Origin: a virus
Taxonomy: Duplodnaviria > Caudoviricetes
IMG/VR virus record: IMGVR_UViG_3300028888_000093
Location: 27,345 to 91,344 of that record
DNA: 64,000 nucleotides
Reading direction: 5' to 3' (one strand)
Part shown: one piece after another, positions 27,248-63,847 of the stretch
Numbering within the stretch: position 1 is the stretch's first letter
How the letters are laid out: every line of letters starts with the position of its first letter
Program-made: the position numbers and the translations under genes
Notes under the pieces: model-generated
Seen by the model: the letters and a program-made list of their open reading frames with translations, nothing else
Told to the model about the DNA's origin: nothing
Database searches by the model: none

Positions 27248-29380
27248 ATGGCATACGTAAAACAATTTAAAGCTAAGAAAAGCACTGGTGAAGAAGTGCT
27301 TCTTGATATTTATGCAGCATCAGCTGATTTGGCAACCTATGCAATTGAGGCTGAAACCGCACTTGGTGTAAATGGAATATATGTGAATACAAGCAATAAT
27401 TTTGAAATAAATGCAGCAGCCGCTGGTGGTGAAAAACTAAACCTTGTTGCTGGAGATGCAATACAGGTCAAACCTGGCGATGGTGAGCCTTTGCAACTCG
27501 ATTGTGAACAAAACAGTGTTGACATTAATGAATATGGAATTAAGGTTTGCAATGGTGCAATGCCAAAGAATACACGTGTTGTCGGTTTGAAATTGAATGC
27601 CGCTGAGCTTACCGTTGACACACAAAAGGCAAACACTAGTGAATTTGATATTGATGAATTCAATGTTAAAGTGCGCAATGATAAATGGAATGGCGGAGAA
27701 CAAGTTGGCTCAACAGGTCCTATTTACCTTAAAGTGAAAGCGCGTGCCATTGATATGAGATGCCATGACCATGGTGGTATTGCTTTACAAATAGCTGGAG
27801 CTGACAGCAATGGAAAAGAAAATAAAATAAAGTTCGAAAGTGACAGAACTTCAGAAATTGGTGCAATACCAGCGTATAACAAAGAAGGAGGAAAGGGTCT
27901 TGAATTTGGTACCTTCAACAACGAACACGCTTCATTATTCTGTGGGGATTATCGTTTCAAAGGAGATGCAAATGTATACGGCGTAACACGTAACACTCCA
28001 ACGACCGACCTCAAAGGTAAGACCGACTATCCAACTCAAAGTGATGATTTTAAAGATGTTATCAATGCTTCAACTCCGAAAGCCACTTGGAATGAAATTA
28101 TAGACGCAGCTAAAAAATGCGGTAACCTTGATGAAACAATTCGCGCAGAGGTTGCAAGACAGGCTTTAAACGGTGAAATAGACACAAGTGTATTTGTAAC
28201 AAAATCAGAGGTTGAAGATGTTGTTGCTTCAGCAATCAGCGAGGCGCATATCGACACAACTGGGTTGGCAACAGAACAATGGGTTCTTGACAAACGTTAT
28301 ATTGACGCTTTGCCTGATACAATCCAATATTTGAAGATGGGTAAGAGCAAAGGTAATTTTGCTGTTGATGTAACTGGAAAATACACATGGGAATTGACAA
28401 GTCCTAAATCAGCAACAACTGTTGATGAATATGGTGTGCCACACGCAAAAGGCGACAGAATTATCAACTATTCAAATGAAGCATTTTACTCTGACCCGAA
28501 TAAAGTTTATTATAAAGCAGTAATAGAGACAACTCTTGCCGACAACACTACTGTTGTTCCGATAGACACAATCGTTTATACTTCAGGATGTAATTTGACT
28601 TTCAATGTTCCAGAGGGTGCATATCAATATTATTTAATCGGTAACGGTGAAGCATCGTTTTATGAAGACCCAACAAAATATGTTTACCAGGGTACTAAAA
28701 ACATTTCAATAGCATATGGAGAAACAACACCAATAAAGAAAAAGGCTATTAAAAATCCGAACGATTTAACACAAGAAGAATTAGAGTATTACGATAGTCA
28801 AACACCAGAATACGATGAAGAAGGTTCTTTGATTGCTGGTTGGGAAAAAACTCCAATATGGAAAAAATCGACATTGTGGTCACAAAACGAAATCAACATT
28901 AATCTTGAAACAGATAGTAAAATAAAATTTGCTGGAAAGAAAATTGAAACTGTTTGGACTTATGAAGAAAATGGTGAGGATGTTGACCACAAAATGGATG
29001 ATATTTTACTTTCAACAAACACTTTGTCTACTGATGCAAATGAAGTCGTTTTTGAACAAAAGATTTCTAAAAACGGTGATAGAGAAGGTCAAGACAGTGA
29101 AATAGTGTATTCGTTCGGTAATAATGTTGCAGACGTTGAAAAGGTTCCAGACTTGTCTGCATTTATGGCTAATTATCGTTCAAAACATTCTGGTACCTAT
29201 ACAGATGAAGAACTTACAGCAAAATATAATGCATTTTTAGCTGAAGGCCAATCCTTTGAAATCAGAGTCAAAATCAGCGAGCTTCTTGGTCTTGTTGAAA
29301 GAGTTGCACAACTTGAAGCAAAGGTGGCACAGCTTGAAAACACTTCAACAGAACCAGAACAGACGAATCCTGGTGAATAA
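27248..29380 (+). CDS. Tail fibre/spike-like virion protein
   Basis: 710 aa; beta-rich N-half, LATEQWV shaft motif, C-terminal coiled coil. Confidence 0.5.
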   Translation: MAYVKQFKAKKSTGEEVLLDIYAASADLATYAIEAETALGVNGIYVNTSNNFEINAAAAGGEKLNLVAGDAIQVKPGDGEPLQLDCEQNSVDINEYGIKVCNGAMPKNTRVVGLKLNAAELTVDTQKANTSEFDIDEFNVKVRNDKWNGGEQVGSTGPIYLKVKARAIDMRCHDHGGIALQIAGADSNGKENKIKFESDRTSEIGAIPAYNKEGGKGLEFGTFNNEHASLFCGDYRFKGDANVYGVTRNTPTTDLKGKTDYPTQSDDFKDVINASTPKATWNEIIDAAKKCGNLDETIRAEVARQALNGEIDTSVFVTKSEVEDVVASAISEAHIDTTGLATEQWVLDKRYIDALPDTIQYLKMGKSKGNFAVDVTGKYTWELTSPKSATTVDEYGVPHAKGDRIINYSNEAFYSDPNKVYYKAVIETTLADNTTVVPIDTIVYTSGCNLTFNVPEGAYQYYLIGNGEASFYEDPTKYVYQGTKNISIAYGETTPIKKKAIKNPNDLTQEELEYYDSQTPEYDEEGSLIAGWEKTPIWKKSTLWSQNEININLETDSKIKFAGKKIETVWTYEENGEDVDHKMDDILLSTNTLSTDANEVVFEQKISKNGDREGQDSEIVYSFGNNVADVEKVPDLSAFMANYRSKHSGTYTDEELTAKYNAFLAEGQSFEIRVKISELLGLVERVAQLEAKVAQLENTSTEPEQTNPGE

Positions 29381-46605: not shown

Positions 46606-46636
46606 TTTAAATTAAAATTAATTTTTTTTATTAACT

Positions 46637-46907
46637 TTGACATACTCCCACGAATAAATTCGTGGGATTCTTGGCTTAGACATGCACGCTGATGGCGTTG
46701 ACGCCAGCAGCATTTGCGCTCACCAATTCGCCGATGCCCCGACGAAGTATATTTCTTGCATCATTCAAGACCCTATCGTTTGTCCTTCCGCTTATTGTTA
46801 TATATTATAATAATAAATAATCTGTTATGTATAAAAAACTATTTATGATTTGTGCTGGATTCATCCAACGACTAAACTAAAGTCTTTGGTTTTCTCCAGT
46901 GTGAATG
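46637..46907 (-). mobile_element. Non-autonomous IS200/IS605-family element (MITE-like) with left end, tnpB 3' remnant and omega-RNA/right end
   Basis: Minus strand: TTTAT target motif, left-end hairpin (ctggagaaaacc...ggatgaatccag), tnpB remnant, perfect right-end hairpin tcccacgaat-tt-attcgtggga, terminal TCAA at 46637. Confidence 0.8.
46676..46792 (-). pseudogene. tnpB: tnpB C-terminal remnant
   Basis: Translates SGRTNDRVLNDARNILRRG..., a decayed CG..DRDxNAAxNI RuvC-III motif. Confidence 0.75.
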
Positions 46908-46943
46908 ATAAAAACATTTTTTCAAAAAGTAAACCTTTTTCAA

Positions 46944-52557: not shown

Positions 52558-55500
52558 ATGGCTAGTATTACTGAAAGACTTAAATTTACAGGAAATTATG
52601 TTGATAGGCTAATGTCTGTTGACACAATGGCTGACTTATTGTCATTGAATCCTAGTGATAATTTTAATGGGCAGACTGTTACTGTATTAAAATTGTATAA
52701 CAGGATTCCAGGTGATTTTTGGCTTGTTAATGGAACAGCATCAAGATATTGGAGATTAAAGGAACTTCCACAAGTTGCAAGTATTGATATCCTTAACCAG
52801 ATAACACAAACATGTACTCTTGATACTGGAAAAATACTAATTGATAACGGTTTTGTTGCATCTGTAAAGTCAGGTTCGACTTTTTCTGAATATGTCTTCT
52901 TTGACGGTGAATGGCTTGAATACAAGAAAGATGGTGAAACTGGTCCTCAGGGTCCACAAGGATTTGTCGGATATCAAGGCGCAAAAGGACCTCAGGGAAA
53001 TATTGGTTTGCAAGGTGCAATAGGTTTCCAAGGAAACGATGGTGAGGATGGCCCTCAAGGTGCTGACGGCCCTCAAGGTAGAGAAGGTGTCCAAGGTCCG
53101 AAAGGTGAAGACGGTGAGAAGGGTGAAGATGGCGTACAAGGACCAGAAGGCCCTCAAGGTGTCGTTGGTATGCAAGGTAATGTAGGACCACAAGGCAAAG
53201 ACGGTATTGATGGTGCACAAGGTTCAGACGGGCCTCAAGGTCCAGAAGGTGCACAGGGTCTGAAAGGTGAGGACGGTGAAAGGGGAGAAGATGGTGCCCA
53301 GGGTCCACAAGGATTTGAAGGTCCACAAGGTCCTAAAGGTGAAGATGGGGCAGACGGAGAAAAAGGCCCTCAAGGCAATGTCGGTCCTCAGGGTGAAAAG
53401 GGTGCAGACGGAACTTCTGTTAAGATTCTGCCTACAAGTGCCGAATGTGAAAACATTGGTGACGGATATATTGATGAAAACGGTGATTTGAACATTTTAT
53501 ATAGTTTAAATCCAAAAGTATTCAAGAATGTGGGCCCGATACGTGGTGAACAAGGCCCAGAAGGTGCACAAGGAAATGATGGTCCTCAAGGTCCTGAAGG
53601 TGTGCAAGGTCCAAAAGGCGAAGATGGTGATAAGGGAGAAGATGGTGTCCAAGGTCCTCAAGGAAACGAAGGTCCACAGGGTCAAAAGGGTGAAGATGGA
53701 GAGAAAGGTGAAGATGGTGTACAAGGCCCGCAAGGTTTGAAAGGCGAGGACGGAGAAAAAGGCGAAGACGGGGCACAGGGTCCACAAGGAATTAAAGGTG
53801 AAGATGGAGAAACTGGTACACAAGGTCCACAAGGTAAAGATGGTGAGAAAGGTGAAGATGGAACACAGGGTCCTCAGGGTGTTGTTGGCCCTCAAGGTGA
53901 AAAAGGTTCCGACGGTACATCAGTAAACATTTTACCGAGTTCAGCCGATTGTGAACACATTGGCGATGGTTACATTGACGAAAATGGAGACCTTAATATA
54001 CTTTATGAATTAAATCCAAAGAAATTCAAGAATGTTGGACCTATCAGGGGTGAACAAGGTCCAAAAGGACCGCAAGGAAATTTAGGCCCGCAAGGTCCTG
54101 AAGGTATACAAGGTCCGCAAGGTTCACAAGGAAACGATGGTCCTCAAGGTCCGAAAGGAGAAGATGGTGAGAAGGGTGAAAAAGGATACCAAGGTTATCA
54201 GGGAATGGAAGGCCCTCAAGGACTTAAGGGTGAAGATGGAGAGAAAGGTGAAGATGGTGTCCAAGGTCCGCAAGGTTCACAAGGAAACGATGGTCCTCAA
54301 GGACCAGAAGGTATTCAAGGACCAGAAGGTCACCAAGGTAATGTTGGACCGCAGGGCAATATTGGTCCTCAAGGAATAAAAGGCGAAGTTGGAGCTCAAG
54401 GACAGCAAGGTTTTGAAGGCCCGCAAGGTCCAGAAGGTGCACAAGGATATGATGGTCCACAAGGAAACGACGGCGTTCAAGGACCTCAGGGAACAACGAA
54501 TATAATTTCAGCTTCAACAGCGATTACAATTGAAGACAATACAATTGGCGTCAAAGTAGCCGAAAGTCTTGAGGAAGTTATCGTTTCAGACAATGGAAAA
54601 AATTATTTGAGAGTGACCGAAAACAATGAGCTTCAAGTTGATGGTGTCGACACTGATTCATCTGTTATTCCGAGTGAAATCATACTAGAAGGAGGTCCGT
54701 TGGCTGAGTTGGCAAAACAAGCATATCCAGATGGAACAATTCCTAGCGGAACAACAATGCAAGACCTGCTAATGAAACTATTCTGTCAGGAGAAGTGGGG
54801 TTCGGCAAACGGCCCGACATATACTTTCAATGCCAGCGTTGCTGCACCTACAACCAATTTGAACAAGTCTTCATATCAGCCAGTAGGCATGATTGCTATC
54901 GGTTCAGCATCTATCAACAACACAAGCGCAAACCAATATGCAACTGTTACTGGTATGACATATGGATATAGCGGAACAAGCCATTCAAATACAGCAACAA
55001 CATATACACAGACAGTTACACCTACAAAGACAGGTGAGGCCACTATCACGTGCTCATGGACAAACCTGGTTCCTGTTGACAATTCCGTTGATGGTTCAAG
55101 CGGAGCCTCCAAAGAGTTCTATATCATGAATGGTACAAACACATACAGGGCAAATGTCACAGGACAGACGGTTACGCCAGCTGAATTTTCAGAAGAGACG
55201 ATTTATGCAATGTCTAACTTAGACTCTGTATCAGAAATCGGGGCCACAATATCAGAGGAAGGTTTTGAGTCATCATCGGCCTACAAGACTGGAATCACGC
55301 CTACTAACACATCAAGCAAGACTGTGACTGGATACAGACCTGTTTATTATGGTGCTGTTACAGCAACGTCAATTGATGACAACTATGTAACTGAAAATGT
55401 ATTGACTGGTTTCGGAAGTTCACAAAGGAATGTTCCTACATCATATACGGTTCCTACAAATTCAGGTGCATTCATAATTGCAATTCCAAGTGGCAATTCA

Positions 55501-60011: not shown

Positions 60012-61610
60012 ATGATAAAAATTATTGTTGCGGTAGGTAATTATGTCCCAGAAAAAGGGTTTCCGATTGGAAAAAACGGTGGCATGGCGTGGGATTTTCC
60101 AGAAGATTTAAAATGGTTCAGAAAAACAACTGAACACAATATTGTTGTGATGGGTAGAAACACGTATAAAGCAATTGGTGAGAAACCACTACCAAATAGA
60201 GACAATTATATTGTTTCAAATTCAATGACAGAAACACCAGAAGGATTTTCTGGAATTTTACATAGTATTGACGACATTGTAAAGTTACACGAAAATACGG
60301 TATTTTACGATGTTTATGTTATTGGTGGTGCAGAGTTATATAAGTCTGTTATTGACGCTGATATAGTAGATGAAGTTTTAATTGATTTTATTGATGTTGA
60401 AGTTCCAGATGCAGACACATTTTTCCAGCCTTTGGACTTGAATAAGTGGAAGATGGATGAAGATGGTATAAGATTAAGCGATAAATGCACCGTCAATACA
60501 TTTAAACATGTAAAATTTTTTAATGATGTTGATGAACAATATTTTAATTTGGTGCAAGACATTATTAAAAACGGAGAAACAAAAGAAACACGTGCTGGAA
60601 TTACAAGGTCTGTTTTTGGGAGACAACTACGTTTCAACCTTAAAAATGGCTTGCCGTTGCTAACAACAAAAAAAGTTTACACAAATGGTATCATTCATGA
60701 ACTTATTTGGTTCCTTAAAGGCGATACGAATATTAAATATCTTGTTGACAACAATGTGCATATATGGGATGATGACGCATACAGATATTATCTTGAGCTT
60801 GTTGAAAAAAACAACGAAGTCTTAAAATGTGATGACGCACCATTGTTGAATGCTCATTATTTTGGGCCTATCACAAAGGAAGAGTTCTTGAAAGCTGTCA
60901 TTGAAGAAAAAGACTGTTGGTTATACTTGGATAGATTGGCTGGTTATATATCATACTACCCAAACAACTATTATATTCACTATAAATTTGGCGACCTTGG
61001 TCCAGTTTATGGTGAACAATGGAGAAACTGGTACGGCGTTGACCAAATAAAGAAAGTTATTGAAATATTAAGAACAAATCCAGATGACAGAAGAATGGTC
61101 GTCTCTGCTTGGAACGTTAAAGAATTGGATAAAATGGCTCTTCCTCCTTGTCATTATTCATTTCAATTTTATACAAAAAAAATGGATATTTTAGAAAGAA
61201 GGAACTGGGCAGACGAACATAACTTTGATTGCTGGGATGAAAAATCACTCGATAAAAACAATGTTCCGTCAAGAAAGTTGAGCTGTATGTTTCATATACG
61301 CAGTAATGATGTAGGTTGTGGAACGAGTTTTAATTGGGTTTCATATGCAATATTAACACATATGGTTGCACAATGCTGTAATATGGAGGTTGATGAACTT
61401 ATTTATGATGTGGGAGACGCACACATATATGAAAATCATATTGAACAATTACATGAACAATTAAAGAGAAACCCACATAAATATGCGTTACCGAAACTTG
61501 AATTGAATCCAAATGTAAAAGAAATTGATGATTTTAGACCATATGATATTAAAATAGTTGGATATAAATCATACCCAGCAATAAAATTGCCATTAAATGT
61601 CGGATTATGA
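60012..61610 (+). CDS. thyA: Bifunctional dihydrofolate reductase-thymidylate synthase
   Basis: DHFR motifs IGKNG.MAW..PEDL, VVMGRNTY, PLPNR, VIGG, ADTFF fused in frame to ThyA motifs PLLTTKK, DLGPVYG.QWR, MALPPCH, RSND..FN, GDAHIY.NH. Confidence 0.93.
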   Translation: MIKIIVAVGNYVPEKGFPIGKNGGMAWDFPEDLKWFRKTTEHNIVVMGRNTYKAIGEKPLPNRDNYIVSNSMTETPEGFSGILHSIDDIVKLHENTVFYDVYVIGGAELYKSVIDADIVDEVLIDFIDVEVPDADTFFQPLDLNKWKMDEDGIRLSDKCTVNTFKHVKFFNDVDEQYFNLVQDIIKNGETKETRAGITRSVFGRQLRFNLKNGLPLLTTKKVYTNGIIHELIWFLKGDTNIKYLVDNNVHIWDDDAYRYYLELVEKNNEVLKCDDAPLLNAHYFGPITKEEFLKAVIEEKDCWLYLDRLAGYISYYPNNYYIHYKFGDLGPVYGEQWRNWYGVDQIKKVIEILRTNPDDRRMVVSAWNVKELDKMALPPCHYSFQFYTKKMDILERRNWADEHNFDCWDEKSLDKNNVPSRKLSCMFHIRSNDVGCGTSFNWVSYAILTHMVAQCCNMEVDELIYDVGDAHIYENHIEQLHEQLKRNPHKYALPKLELNPNVKEIDDFRPYDIKIVGYKSYPAIKLPLNVGL

Positions 61611-62146
61611 GTATTTTGTTGATAAACAAGCAAGCAAAAAAAATAACGGTAGCTTCTGATGGCCGTTCATTGATAGGTGATTTCGTTATTTCGGATAATA
61701 TAAAAAAAATAAAAAAGATAACAAAAAAACTTATTGTTGGTTCAGTTGGATATTTATCAATAAACACATTATGGAATTCTTTTGTGGAATTGAACAAGCA
61801 AAAAATTGAAAACATAAGTTCAATTCAAGAAACAATAACATGCTCCAATAACTTTGTTGACTATTTGAAAAACTTTTGTTCTTATGATGAAGAAGATTTA
61901 TGTGAAGAATTATGTGGTTCTACATTGTTAATGTGTAATAGGAATATTGTAAATATAATTAAATTTTCAAATAAATTAACACCAATTGTATTTACAGTTG
62001 AATCAACTTATAGTGTTGGGTGTGGAAGTGAGTATGCACAAGCACTCATTGATTATGGTGTTAATTTTAAGGAAATAATATCAATGGTATCAAAAAGGTA
62101 CTCAAATATCGGTAATAGTTATTTTGTTGAAGAAATTAAAATTTAA
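61607..62146 (+). CDS. HslV/proteasome-beta-like Ntn-hydrolase
   Basis: MSILL..VASDGRS..KKI..VGSVG..SVGCGSEYA pattern; Ser at the Thr1 position. Confidence 0.65.
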   Translation: MSILLINKQAKKITVASDGRSLIGDFVISDNIKKIKKITKKLIVGSVGYLSINTLWNSFVELNKQKIENISSIQETITCSNNFVDYLKNFCSYDEEDLCEELCGSTLLMCNRNIVNIIKFSNKLTPIVFTVESTYSVGCGSEYAQALIDYGVNFKEIISMVSKRYSNIGNSYFVEEIKI

Positions 62147-62167
62147 TTATCACAATAGAAAAAGAAT

Positions 62168-62204
62168 AATGGCGAAGCAAAATAAGCTTCGCCATTTTTT
62201 TTTT
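62168..62204. terminator. Bidirectional terminator
   Basis: aatggcgaagc...gcttcgccatt + T run, between convergent genes. Confidence 0.85.
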
Positions 62205-62206
62205 CA

Positions 62207-62347
62207 TTAAATCGGCCTTCTGTAAACAACACGTCTGTTTACATTTCTTCTAGGAGCTGGAGCAGCAGTTGCACTCTTTTTCTTTACAACCTGCTTTACG
62301 GTTGTCACTTGTTTTTTTGAAGAACCCTTTTTACATCCACATGCCAT
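62207..62347 (-). CDS. Small basic protein with N-terminal MACGCKK motif (46 aa)
   Basis: Hand translation MACGCKKGSSKKQVTTVKQVVKKKSATAAPAPRRNVNRRVVYRRPI; ACTATTTAT at 62368-62376(-); terminator downstream. Confidence 0.7.
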   Translation of the reverse strand: MACGCKKGSSKKQVTTVKQVVKKKSATAAPAPRRNVNRRVVYRRPI

Positions 62348-62504
62348 TTCTAAATATTTTTTTTCAAATAAATAGTGTTATTTCGTAAAAAAATCCAAAA
62401 AATAACAACATAAAATATTGGTTATTAAAAACTTTATGATAATAAGAAACTTTAATTAATTCAAAATCAATATTTTAAAGTAATTAAAAAATTTTTAATT
62501 AAAA

Positions 62505-62535
62505 TTTGATTTTTTTCTTTTTTTCTGTATATTTA
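62505..62535 (+). promoter_or_regulatory. Bacteroidota-type promoter TTTG-N19-TATATTTA upstream of the orphan omega-RNA
   Basis: tttg 62505-62508, tatattta 62528-62535. Confidence 0.55.
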
Positions 62536-62550
62536 TAAAAAAAAATAAAT

Positions 62551-62675
62551 CGTTGGGGCATCGACGAATTGGCGAGTGCAAATGCTGCTGGCATAAATGT
62601 CATCAGCGTGCATGTTTAAACCAAGAATCTCATGGATTTATTCGTGGGGGTATGTCAATTATAGAAAAATCGCCA
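62551..62675 (+). ncRNA. Orphan TnpB omega-RNA/reRNA (IS200/IS605 right end, scaffold 62551-62658, plus ~16-nt guide)
   Basis: 108 nt align without gaps to the reverse complement of 46637-46744 (14 differences); ends in TCAA; no left end or tnpB adjacent. Confidence 0.7.
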
Positions 62676-62756
62676 TGAGGTTGTGGCGGGCAATGGACTC
62701 AAAGCAACCACAATGTGCGGTTTATAAAAACAGAACAAACAAAACAGAAAAATAAC

Positions 62757-62921
62757 ATGTTGGAATCATATATGAAGAATATTAACAGGCAATACATAAA
62801 CACACTCCCACAAGGAGATGTGTTGGATTTTGCACATGTTTCCAGTAGTAATTATTCAATAGCGTTTGAACCGAAACAGGAACAAAAAAGAGGGATGAGG
62901 GATATTGGAGTTTTAATATGA
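62757..62921 (+). CDS. Putative leader peptide (54 aa) upstream of the tRNA region
   Basis: ATG 62757; stop lies ~40 nt before a terminator whose 5' arm is complementary to the last codons. Confidence 0.4.
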   Translation: MLESYMKNINRQYINTLPQGDVLDFAHVSSSNYSIAFEPKQEQKRGMRDIGVLI

Positions 62922-62962
62922 AATAAGGTGAGCACATAGGTTTCTAACCACAACATATTCCC

Positions 62963-63003
62963 AACCTCTGAAAAGTTTCCGAACAAATCAGAGGTTTTTT
63001 TTT
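62963..63003 (+). terminator. Rho-independent terminator/attenuator
   Basis: aacctctga...tcagaggtt + long T run. Confidence 0.75.
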
Positions 63004-63023
63004 ATGTTTAAATCTATGTAAAC

Positions 63024-63084
63024 TGTCATTTTGACATATAAGCATGACAAAATGTCATAAATTTAGTTTGGCATGATGTTTGCA
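63024..63084 (+). promoter_or_regulatory. Sigma-54 (-24/-12) promoter with two upstream TGWCA-N3-TGWCA boxes
   Basis: TGGCA-tgatgt-TTGCA at 63069-63084 with exact spacing; TGTCAtttTGACA 63024-63036 and TGACAaaaTGTCA 63045-63057. Confidence 0.7.
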
Positions 63085-63102
63085 TAAATAAAAAAACGAC
63101 AT

Positions 63103-63176
63103 GGTGCCGTTAGCTCAGTTGGTAGAGCGCATGTCTGTGGAACATGAGGTCGTTGGTTCAAACCCAACACGGCACC
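63103..63176 (+). tRNA. trnH: tRNA-His (GUG), encoded G-1:C73, no encoded CCA
   Basis: Full cloverleaf: gtgccgt/acggcac, gctc/gagc, catgt-ctGTGga-acatg, gttgg-ttcaaac-ccaac. Confidence 0.95.
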
Positions 63177-63232
63177 CGAAAAAAAGTTTGGAAGTTTCAA
63201 AAAAGATTTGTAATCTTACAAACACAAACGAG

Positions 63233-63244
63233 AGTTCTTTGAAA
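63233..63244 (+). promoter_or_regulatory. boxA-like antitermination element
   Basis: agttctttgaaa just downstream of a promoter-like TTTG-N20-TAATCTTA; resembles rRNA-leader boxA. Confidence 0.5.
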
Positions 63245-63274
63245 AAATGAAAATATAAAGTGATTGCTGGTGTT

Positions 63275-63686
63275 AATAGTGACACTACATGCATAGGCGA
63301 GAAATCCCTATGTAGAATCTCCCAAATTCGGTGGAAGGCCTTTTCCTATTGATAAGACAAGAAATGTGTATAAGAAAGGAACACAACACTAAACAATAAC
63401 GTGTAAGGACAATACCGAGCGAAAGTGATATAAAGACTTAGCCAAAGAAACTATATATCATCAATCGTGTAGAGACTGAACGGGAGATACCTAAATTGGA
63501 ATTGAATTCCCTATTAAGCATTGTTAGGTGATGCTGTCCCGAAAGGATGAAACAAGATGCAATTTCTTGAATAGGATTCTTGCAAGAATTTCAATATGGT
63601 AATGTCAGTCAAAGTCACAATAAGCATTTGTAAGAACTGTGGAGTTGAAACCACATTAAAAAACGTGTTGAGAATGCTTGACACTG
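63275..63686 (+). ncRNA. Group I intron (412 nt, no ORF) in the non-coding leader of a tRNA
   Basis: P1 ggtgtU/Gacact; P2; P3 tctccc(63318)/gggaga(63482); P4 ttcggt/accgag; P6-P6a; P7 gactga(63474)/tcagtc(63605); omega-G 63686; P10 atag/ctat. Confidence 0.85.
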
Positions 63687-63700
63687 CTATCACTTTACTT

Positions 63701-63847
63701 GCGCCCGTAACTCAGCTGGTAGAGTACATCCCTTTATACAGTTTGACATTTCTGCAAAATGTTTCAGATGCTGAAAGGAAAATTCAAGTTCGATTCTTGG
63801 AGCATCTGCTAAGGATGGAGTCGTGGGTTCGAATCCCACCGAGCGCA
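63701..63847 (+). tRNA. trnK: Intron-containing tRNA, most likely Lys (UUU); 74-nt insert at about 63736-63809
   Basis: gcgcccg/cgagcgc acceptor (one C-A mismatch), actc/gagt D stem, catcc/ggatg anticodon stem, gtggg-ttcgaat-cccac T arm; removing 74 nt gives loop CT-TTT-AA; A73 and U20. Confidence 0.75.

Follow-up and report, generated by a model that had tools for sequence, protein, structure and literature searches.

In the genome of a rumen huge phage, a 112-nt element at positions 62547–62658 (plus strand) of the DNA analysed, hereafter referred to as copy B, was found to consist of the right end and omega-RNA scaffold of a TnpB-family transposon, with neither the left end nor the tnpB gene, and to lie behind a promoter-like stretch that predates it. 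With a probability of roughly 55%, we take copy B to be an immobilised omega-RNA module, which would still yield a guide for TnpB acting in trans and would be kept by homing-type maintenance; its role would then be the ordinary selfish homing and maintenance of TnpB, and not a regulatory function of the phage. The DNA analysed, referred to as the window, is the last 64 kb (positions 27,345–91,344) of the 91,344-bp record IMGVR_UViG_3300028888_000093. CheckV estimated this 91-kb record to be 25% complete; the whole phage genome should thus measure roughly 360 kb, of which the record is a fragment. The sequencing runs in which the copy B locus was detected came from the gut of sheep, cattle and goat. 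The 112-nt element is present twice in the window, as copy B and, on the minus strand at 46637–46748, within a longer element referred to as copy A; scanning of the window with a covariance model of the family gave no copies beyond these two.

The boundary of copy B was set by comparison with its relatives. All 24 distinct copies identified in viral and metagenome collections end with GTATGTCAA and diverge at once thereafter, which fixes the right end of copy B at 62658 and places its presumed 16-nt guide, TTATAGAAAAATCGCC, at 62659–62674, within the flank of the insertion. An earlier note, made from the letters of this DNA alone, had described an IS605-type right end lacking left end and tnpB, followed by a guide; both statements were borne out by the relatives, with the start of the element corrected from 62551 to 62547. 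Copy B aligned with L004, L005, L009 and 20 other family members. In the relatives, the 112 nt comprise the final ~70 nt of the gene for a 369-aa TnpB as well as the right end, and the tnpB stop codon is located ~70 nt into the 112-nt core; a stop codon inside the scaffold is usual for omega-RNAs overlapping tnpB. Full-length relatives with an intact 369-aa TnpB were found in other rumen huge phages. For one of these (L005:6612-7721), the 369-aa protein was shown to carry the Pfam OrfB_IS605 and Cas12f1-like TNB domains. The family TnpB matched the ISDra2 TnpB structures (E=1.7e-38) and retains GIDFG, IEDL and DRDLNAARNI, the D-E-D nuclease motifs. As the transposon-adjacent motif (TAM), TTTAT was observed at four of the five left-end junctions available from the relatives and copy A, the fifth being ATTAT; the junctions continue with GATT(Y)ACACTGGAG. 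Copy B is the right end of an IS1341-like (tnpB-only) element of the IS200/IS605 group, from which left end and tnpB are gone.

With the covariance model, copy B scored 116.5 bits (E=1.6e-29) and copy A 127.7 bits, the tnpB-linked and miniature (MITE) copies ranging between 127 and 132 bits. Independent MITEs (copy A, L088, L069 and L062) all keep the 112-nt core plus ~6–10 nt upstream. This is far more than a transposase-binding hairpin needs, suggesting that the scaffold itself is what persists. Judged from its sequence by this standard of the family, the scaffold of copy B is complete. Rfam scans, with both gathering and E-value thresholds, detected no family at copy B, and near and distant blastn searches of GenBank phages gave no match to the element. 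Among bacterial genomes, a family member was found only in one rumen Bacteroidales MAG contig of 287 kb; a second match was spurious. A further member at L013:8155-8264 (IMGVR_UViG_3300045988_176777) shares the terminal hairpin and the GTATGTCAA end, has another upstream scaffold without the P1 TTCGTCGG hairpin, and scored 71 bits with the covariance model. The family resembles the ISDra2 system (PDB 8exa, 8h1j) in that the omega-RNA is derived from the tnpB 3' end plus the right end with a scaffold of ~110–130 nt, the 16-nt guide is taken from the flank, and a 5-nt TAM is located 5' of the left end. It differs in that the TAM is TTTAT and the scaffold is unrelated at the nucleotide level, and copy B has no cognate gene in cis.

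Copy A (46637–46907, minus strand) is a 271-nt MITE of the same family, composed of the left end, ~45 nt of the tnpB 3' end and the right end. TTTAT is located next to it at 46908–46912, and its guide, AGTTAATAAAAAAAAT, at 46621–46636. MITEs of the IS200/IS605 group, known as palindrome-associated transposable elements (PATEs), are non-autonomous tnpB/tnpA derivatives that retain the terminal structure. Copy A fits this description, with subterminal hairpins at both ends; in contrast, copy B has no left end, and as DNA its right-end hairpin is predicted to remain unfolded. Upstream of copy B, similarity to the left end was not significant (P=0.1–0.77), and tnpB is represented only by a 26-aa C-terminal fragment, the scaffold therefore lacking the overlap in cis with tnpB that marks omega-RNAs. 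The inserted DNA directly follows a TTTAT at 62532–62536 (plus strand), identified as the family TAM from the left-end junctions of the relatives, and the core begins 10 nt past it. The A-rich junction between the two, AAAAAAAAAT at 62537–62546 (plus strand), was compared with tnpB-linked copies and with the sister copy L080 described below; it is probably a leftover of the ...AAGAAATAT end of the tnpB frame, as far as such a low-complexity sequence allows.

The promoter-like stretch upstream of copy B (62505–62535, plus strand) is composed of TTTG at 62505–62508, 19 nt, and TATATTTA at 62528–62535. As described in the earlier note, TTTAT is seen both within this stretch and in front of the MITE. 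A scan for sigma-70-type promoters listed a site at 62506–62533, but the 5 sites in the scanned stretch compare with 4.9 expected from shuffles, so that by itself the motif does not exceed chance. The history of the site was read from the nearest relative found, a complete 361-kb phage (L019; genome G006), in which the fused dihydrofolate reductase-thymidylate synthase (DHFR-TS) shows 86% protein identity and the flanking DNA 84–87% identity. The DHFR-TS gene, a 46-aa reverse ORF, a terminator-like hairpin and tRNA-His are conserved in L019, and the window between 62352 and 62932 has no blastn counterpart there. The order in the window is aaaaTTTGATTTTTTT, 19 nt, TATATTTAT, the element and TTATAGAAAAATCGCCATGAG. 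At the element-free site of L019, a 206-aa ORF is followed by aaaaCTTGATTTTTTT, ~20 nt and TATTTATA, and ~45 nt later by a 41-aa ORF. L019 keeps, without the element, both the −33-like stretch (TTGATTTTTTT, cTTGATTTTTTT) and the TAT(A)TTTATA box. The sequence after TTTAT in L019 is ATTTTTGAAATCACATAAG, with which the window flank matches as GAAATCACAT against GAAAAATCGCCAT, and after removal of the element in silico the flanks of the window and L019 are colinear. The presence of the same promoter-like stretch at the empty site indicates that the promoter predates the element and serves the small ORF and the tRNA array. The proposal that copy B stands under its own promoter was not upheld by this comparison. 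As read from these alignments, the element either inserted into an existing phage promoter or lost sequence up to it; in our preferred reading, the parent element would have inserted 3' of TTTAT inside the existing promoter of the small ORF and the tRNA array (more than 20 genes). The element-free allele had been expected to read TTTAT plus guide. The form of TTTAT plus flank was found as expected, but the empty site of L019 is diverged.

Downstream of copy B, the small ORF of 54 aa (62757–62921, plus strand; from the ORF list) is covered by overlapping RNA contigs. It has no Pfam family; the 41-aa ORF of L019 occupies the same position and shares a similar C-terminal motif. A terminator-like hairpin with a T run (62963–63004, plus strand), conserved in L019 and weakly matching a terminator-like sRNA in Rfam, precedes tRNA-His (63104–63177). 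A contig identical to the window (L003/L082; 100% over 4,847 bp) extends it by 6.5 kb and carries, after the window, 23 tRNA genes on one strand (L003:177-7388), bounded by a third copy of the element on the opposite strand. This third copy, of which the guide is TTGAATTGCCAAATGA, is cut off within its tnpB 3' end, where the contig stops. The tRNA array of L019 includes a suppressor-type tRNA with the anticodon TTA.

The presence of copy B in RNA was observed in contigs from two metatranscriptome runs of one sheep sample; these contigs give neither ends nor strand. The RNA contig depth was 89 on 62550–62962 and 118 on 62933–63318, and was ~0 on 62144–62509 and 5.5 on the upstream gene, the element and downstream region thus being covered at ~16 times the RNA depth of the neighbouring gene. 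Uncovered parts of the RNA runs were taken as absence only for this contrast between upstream and downstream. The DNA runs from cattle and goat were flat at ~5 over the whole region, and the silent stretch next to the element argues against carried-over DNA. Lack of transcription had been named beforehand as a ground for giving up the guide-RNA proposal; RNA-library contigs do cover the element, as contigs without strand or ends. The depth did not drop across the terminator-like hairpin (89 before, 118–158 after). The RNA contigs break near 62550, at the place of a 38-nt stretch that A-type copies also contain, and 437 nt of an 850-nt RNA contig (contig 9) do not belong to the window; our guess for these 437 nt is an assembly join, via the 38-mer in common, with the tnpB 3' end of an A-type copy. 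The remnant is located ~10–15 nt behind the second box of the promoter, and the RNA contigs include it along with the leader.

The apparent co-transcription of the element with the leader and the tRNA-His region, as judged from overlapping RNA contigs with depths of 89–158, could also be read as that of a leader acting in cis, in which the 112 nt would, for example, help to stabilise or process the precursor of the small ORF and the tRNAs, independently of TnpB. The stable predicted fold of copy B (−38.7 kcal/mol, z=−2.1) would suit such a leader as well. We consider this very improbable, because L019 has the same operon architecture without the element, the sister copy L080 is located in an unrelated context, and what is conserved belongs to the scaffold of the TnpB family.

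The structure of the scaffold was predicted from 21 copies using RNAalifold, giving a P1 hairpin, a long-range helix around an inner hairpin, and a terminal hairpin, with compensatory changes across the family at 12 of the 26 predicted pairs. Copy B contains all four helices, i.e., the P1 hairpin, long-range helix, inner hairpin and terminal hairpin, followed by the tail GUAUGUCAA. It keeps 35 of 38 pairs and every single-stranded segment, the outer P1 pair being broken. Comparison with the MITE copy confirmed that the four changes of the terminal hairpin (C>T, C>T, A>G and A>G), to which the earlier note had drawn attention, all give G-U pairs; the compensatory swap from G-C to A-U in the inner hairpin is present as well. 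The view that such wobbles are tolerated in RNA and damaging to a DNA hairpin agrees with the computed folding energies. As RNA, the terminal hairpin of copy B is weakened to −7.3 kcal/mol as compared with −13.0 kcal/mol for the consensus, while as single-stranded DNA it is unfolded (0 against −8.9 for the consensus).

These changes had been interpreted as a signature of selection at the level of RNA. The changes themselves are real, but L080 has three of the four wobbles too, and the statistics for copy B range between P=0.05 and 0.2. Part of the wobble pattern is automatic, since a wobble results whenever C>T or A>G occurs in a stem. The preservation of 35 out of 38 pairs in copy B gave P=0.046 against a strand-symmetric null, 0.058 when only the transition/transversion class was kept, and 0.21 when the observed mutation spectrum was retained. 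L080 (also L085) is a second tnpB-less copy, found by the metagenome scan on a 46-kb contig of another phage, which also carries two full tnpB copies; the record of copy B shares nothing else with this locus. Eight derived states are common to copy B and L080; they include the three wobbles mentioned above as well as three transversions, and are represented by AAATCGTT at the 5' end, TTTAAACC, TCTCATG and GGGGG. Shared states at two loci in two phages indicate that the changes arose in a common 'B-type' ancestor before both insertions; copy B has acquired one private change since then. The selection signature of copy B is not assignable to its stand-alone state, for which it is suggestive at most. 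In viral, metagenome and genome collections, no B-type copy joined to tnpB was detected with the pattern used.

The core of L080 shows 83% identity and has accumulated 15 changes since the B ancestor. Twelve of these are in stems; they include three pairs in which both bases changed in compensation and one wobble that has become U-A. The core preserves 35 of 38 pairs (P=0.001–0.01), and all the single-stranded segments are identical to those of copy B. Upstream of the L080 core are TTTAT, a decayed AT-rich left end, and then ~30 nt of the tnpB 3' end. Where this left end can be aligned with A-type left ends, the identity is ~62% (P<=0.007 against shuffles), and its hairpin CCAACGAC/GTCGTTGG is lost. 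Decay of the left end with preservation of the scaffold pairs indicates that tnpB-less B-type scaffolds are under constraint, an argument that applies to copy B indirectly. In our reading, copy B belongs to a distinct B-type sublineage of the TnpB family circulating among rumen huge phages. That the B-type scaffolds (copy B and L080) form a selected lineage of immobile, promoter-fed guide-RNA genes in huge phages is a further step, which we regard as rather unlikely; if true, TnpB in trans would cut the empty alleles of relatives, and the scaffolds would be an RNA-only homing or gene-drive cassette or a weapon between phages.

The same comparisons bear on the possibility that copy B is an inert relic, i.e., the remnant of a recent deletion, transcribed only by its position between a promoter and the genes which that promoter serves. 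Its intact appearance would then reflect youth together with the structure-preserving evolution of mobile ancestors. The single private change, the eight derived states shared with L080, the P value of 0.21 with the mutation spectrum kept, and the nearest relative lacking the element altogether are all in agreement with such a relic. The cattle and goat strains, which differ from the window by 1–2% in the flanks, show zero changes in the covered parts of the 112-nt core, where ~2 were expected (P about 0.1), and this conservation is unremarkable. The lack of TnpB in the 91-kb record and of any target found, described below, also fits. On the other hand, the scaffold of L080 was kept while its left end decayed, the core of copy B has a G+C content of 45% within intergenic DNA of 24% G+C, and the single-stranded segments that resemble protein contacts are all unchanged. 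We consider the inert relic a real possibility, though a doubtful one.

A guide RNA without its own effector would depend on TnpB supplied from elsewhere. In the 91-kb record, representing 25% of the phage genome, neither a full tnpB nor a match to PF07282 was found, the only traces being two C-terminal fragments at copies A and B. The complete relative G006 has no TnpB and no copy of the element. A complete 355-kb phage with terminal repeats, G001 (IMGVR_UViG_3300021400_001148), carries two MITE-like copies (L014 and L016) and no full TnpB, indicating that such copies persist without a resident nuclease. Among the fetched loci, only L003/L082 shares the flanks of the record, and no full-length copy could be linked in this way to the phage of copy B. 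This phage may carry tnpB, as judged from the third copy at the end of L003, which could also be another MITE. The Y1 transposase TnpA was absent from all five phage records searched, including G001, and mobility must therefore depend on a transposase from elsewhere. In the preferred reading of a guide-yielding module, the intact scaffold would give rise to a guide RNA that the TnpB of sister copies could load in trans, a step to which we give even odds. The RNA 5' end, TnpB loading and cleavage are inferred.

As the guide was taken from the flank of the insertion, just one target can be predicted, namely TTTAT plus this flank, which is the element-free allele of the copy B locus. TnpB programmed with the copy B guide would then cut this allele in co-infecting relatives. 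The empty-site sequence of L019 is, by alignment, too diverged to be cut. The target search proposed in the earlier note found none: in five phage records, the TAM plus the copy B guide with up to three mismatches detected only the own flank, which is without a TAM, and in IMG/VR there was no exact match, even with a variant length of the A run allowed. A search with the L080 guide yielded two exact 21-mers in unrelated phages without flank homology; these were rejected as targets since, by our estimate, an AT-rich 21-mer should give about as many by chance.

The earlier note had also proposed that a nuclease-dead TldR uses the guide for repression, or that it targets the tRNA promoter of relatives; this received no support, as no target was found and the family TnpB has the D-E-D motifs. 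More generally, copy B could be a guide domesticated by the phage, a phage gene by which TnpB or TldR is directed at competitors or made to repress a promoter. The location directly behind a promoter and the RNA cover would suit this, as would the fact that both tnpB-less B-type copies are intergenic and upstream of a gene on the same strand, and that the hairpin is predicted to fold as RNA and not as DNA. However, the promoter is older than the element, the nearest relative manages without the element, and no TldR or TnpB is located nearby; the search for tnpB or tldR found neither in the 91-kb record, while the catalytic motifs of the family TnpB are intact. Furthermore, the guide is the insertion flank, as in any IS605 copy, it matches nothing else searched, and it differs between strains by an indel, the A run at 62665 having lost 1 nt in the cattle and goat strains. 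Domestication by the phage is thus improbable. The guides of TldR are encoded beside a TnpB homologue that is nuclease-dead, and a host promoter contains their match (PMC10705468). Copy B is similar to these guides in being an immobile omega-RNA-like guide, those of TldR being used beyond transposon maintenance (PMC10705468), and differs from them in that the 91-kb record has no TnpB homologue, the D-E-D of the family TnpB is intact, and the guide is the insertion flank.

The closest known counterparts are stand-alone omega-RNAs. In the account of Altae-Tran et al. (2021; via PMC10691335), such RNAs are found without effector or transposase, beside effector-carrying loci, and work in trans, their role being stated as unknown. 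Copy B is like the RNAs of that account in having a scaffold and a guide with no adjacent effector or transposase, and in that effector-carrying copies of its family exist. It is unlike those described there in belonging to a rumen huge phage, in lacking the left end and hence not being mobilisable, and in its location behind a prior promoter heading a tRNA array. Stand-alone omega-RNAs are already known, copy B fits them, and nothing here shows a new function. The points of interest are the phage setting, the capture of a promoter, and the B-type pair. If loaded by TnpB in trans, copy B would represent a natural case of a guide RNA that has outlived its transposon and is transcribed from a promoter of the phage; should the RNA be inert, the locus would be no more than a transposon scar of the usual kind. 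The TnpB biology of rumen huge phages has hardly been looked at, and copy B and L080 together offer a concrete test of whether selection keeps orphan omega-RNAs.

Several other features were observed in the window. Between tRNA-His and tRNA-Lys, the region 63242–63610 includes a weak match to a group I intron (Rfam, 63268–63551; 25.5 bits, E=2.5e-4, below the gathering score). The RNA contig depth of this region reached 51,000 against 89 in the neighbouring stretch, the DNA depth also being raised; variable skips of 70–75 nt were seen at 63503–63578, and in one RNA contig, 63700 is followed by 63253. The following tRNA-Lys(UUU) gene (63701–63847) carries a 74-nt insert (63736–63809) in the anticodon loop; it was missed by ARAGORN and detected by the Rfam tRNA model at 50 bits, and the insert is absent in the orthologous tRNA of L019 (9570–9643). 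Upstream of copy B, a 179-aa ORF at 61607–62146 with a sub-threshold match to a proteasome subunit (E=0.006) is missing from the otherwise colinear L019, and the 206-aa ORF of L019 (7896–8516) is missing from the window. The DHFR-TS fusion protein of the window (60012–61610) is 532 aa in length, and genes for a ClpP-like protease and a metallophosphoesterase are also present at 58–62 kb. Farther upstream, long 9-nt-periodic Gly-X-Y (collagen-like) repeats are located in a coding region at 52900–54500, which is probably that of a fibre protein.
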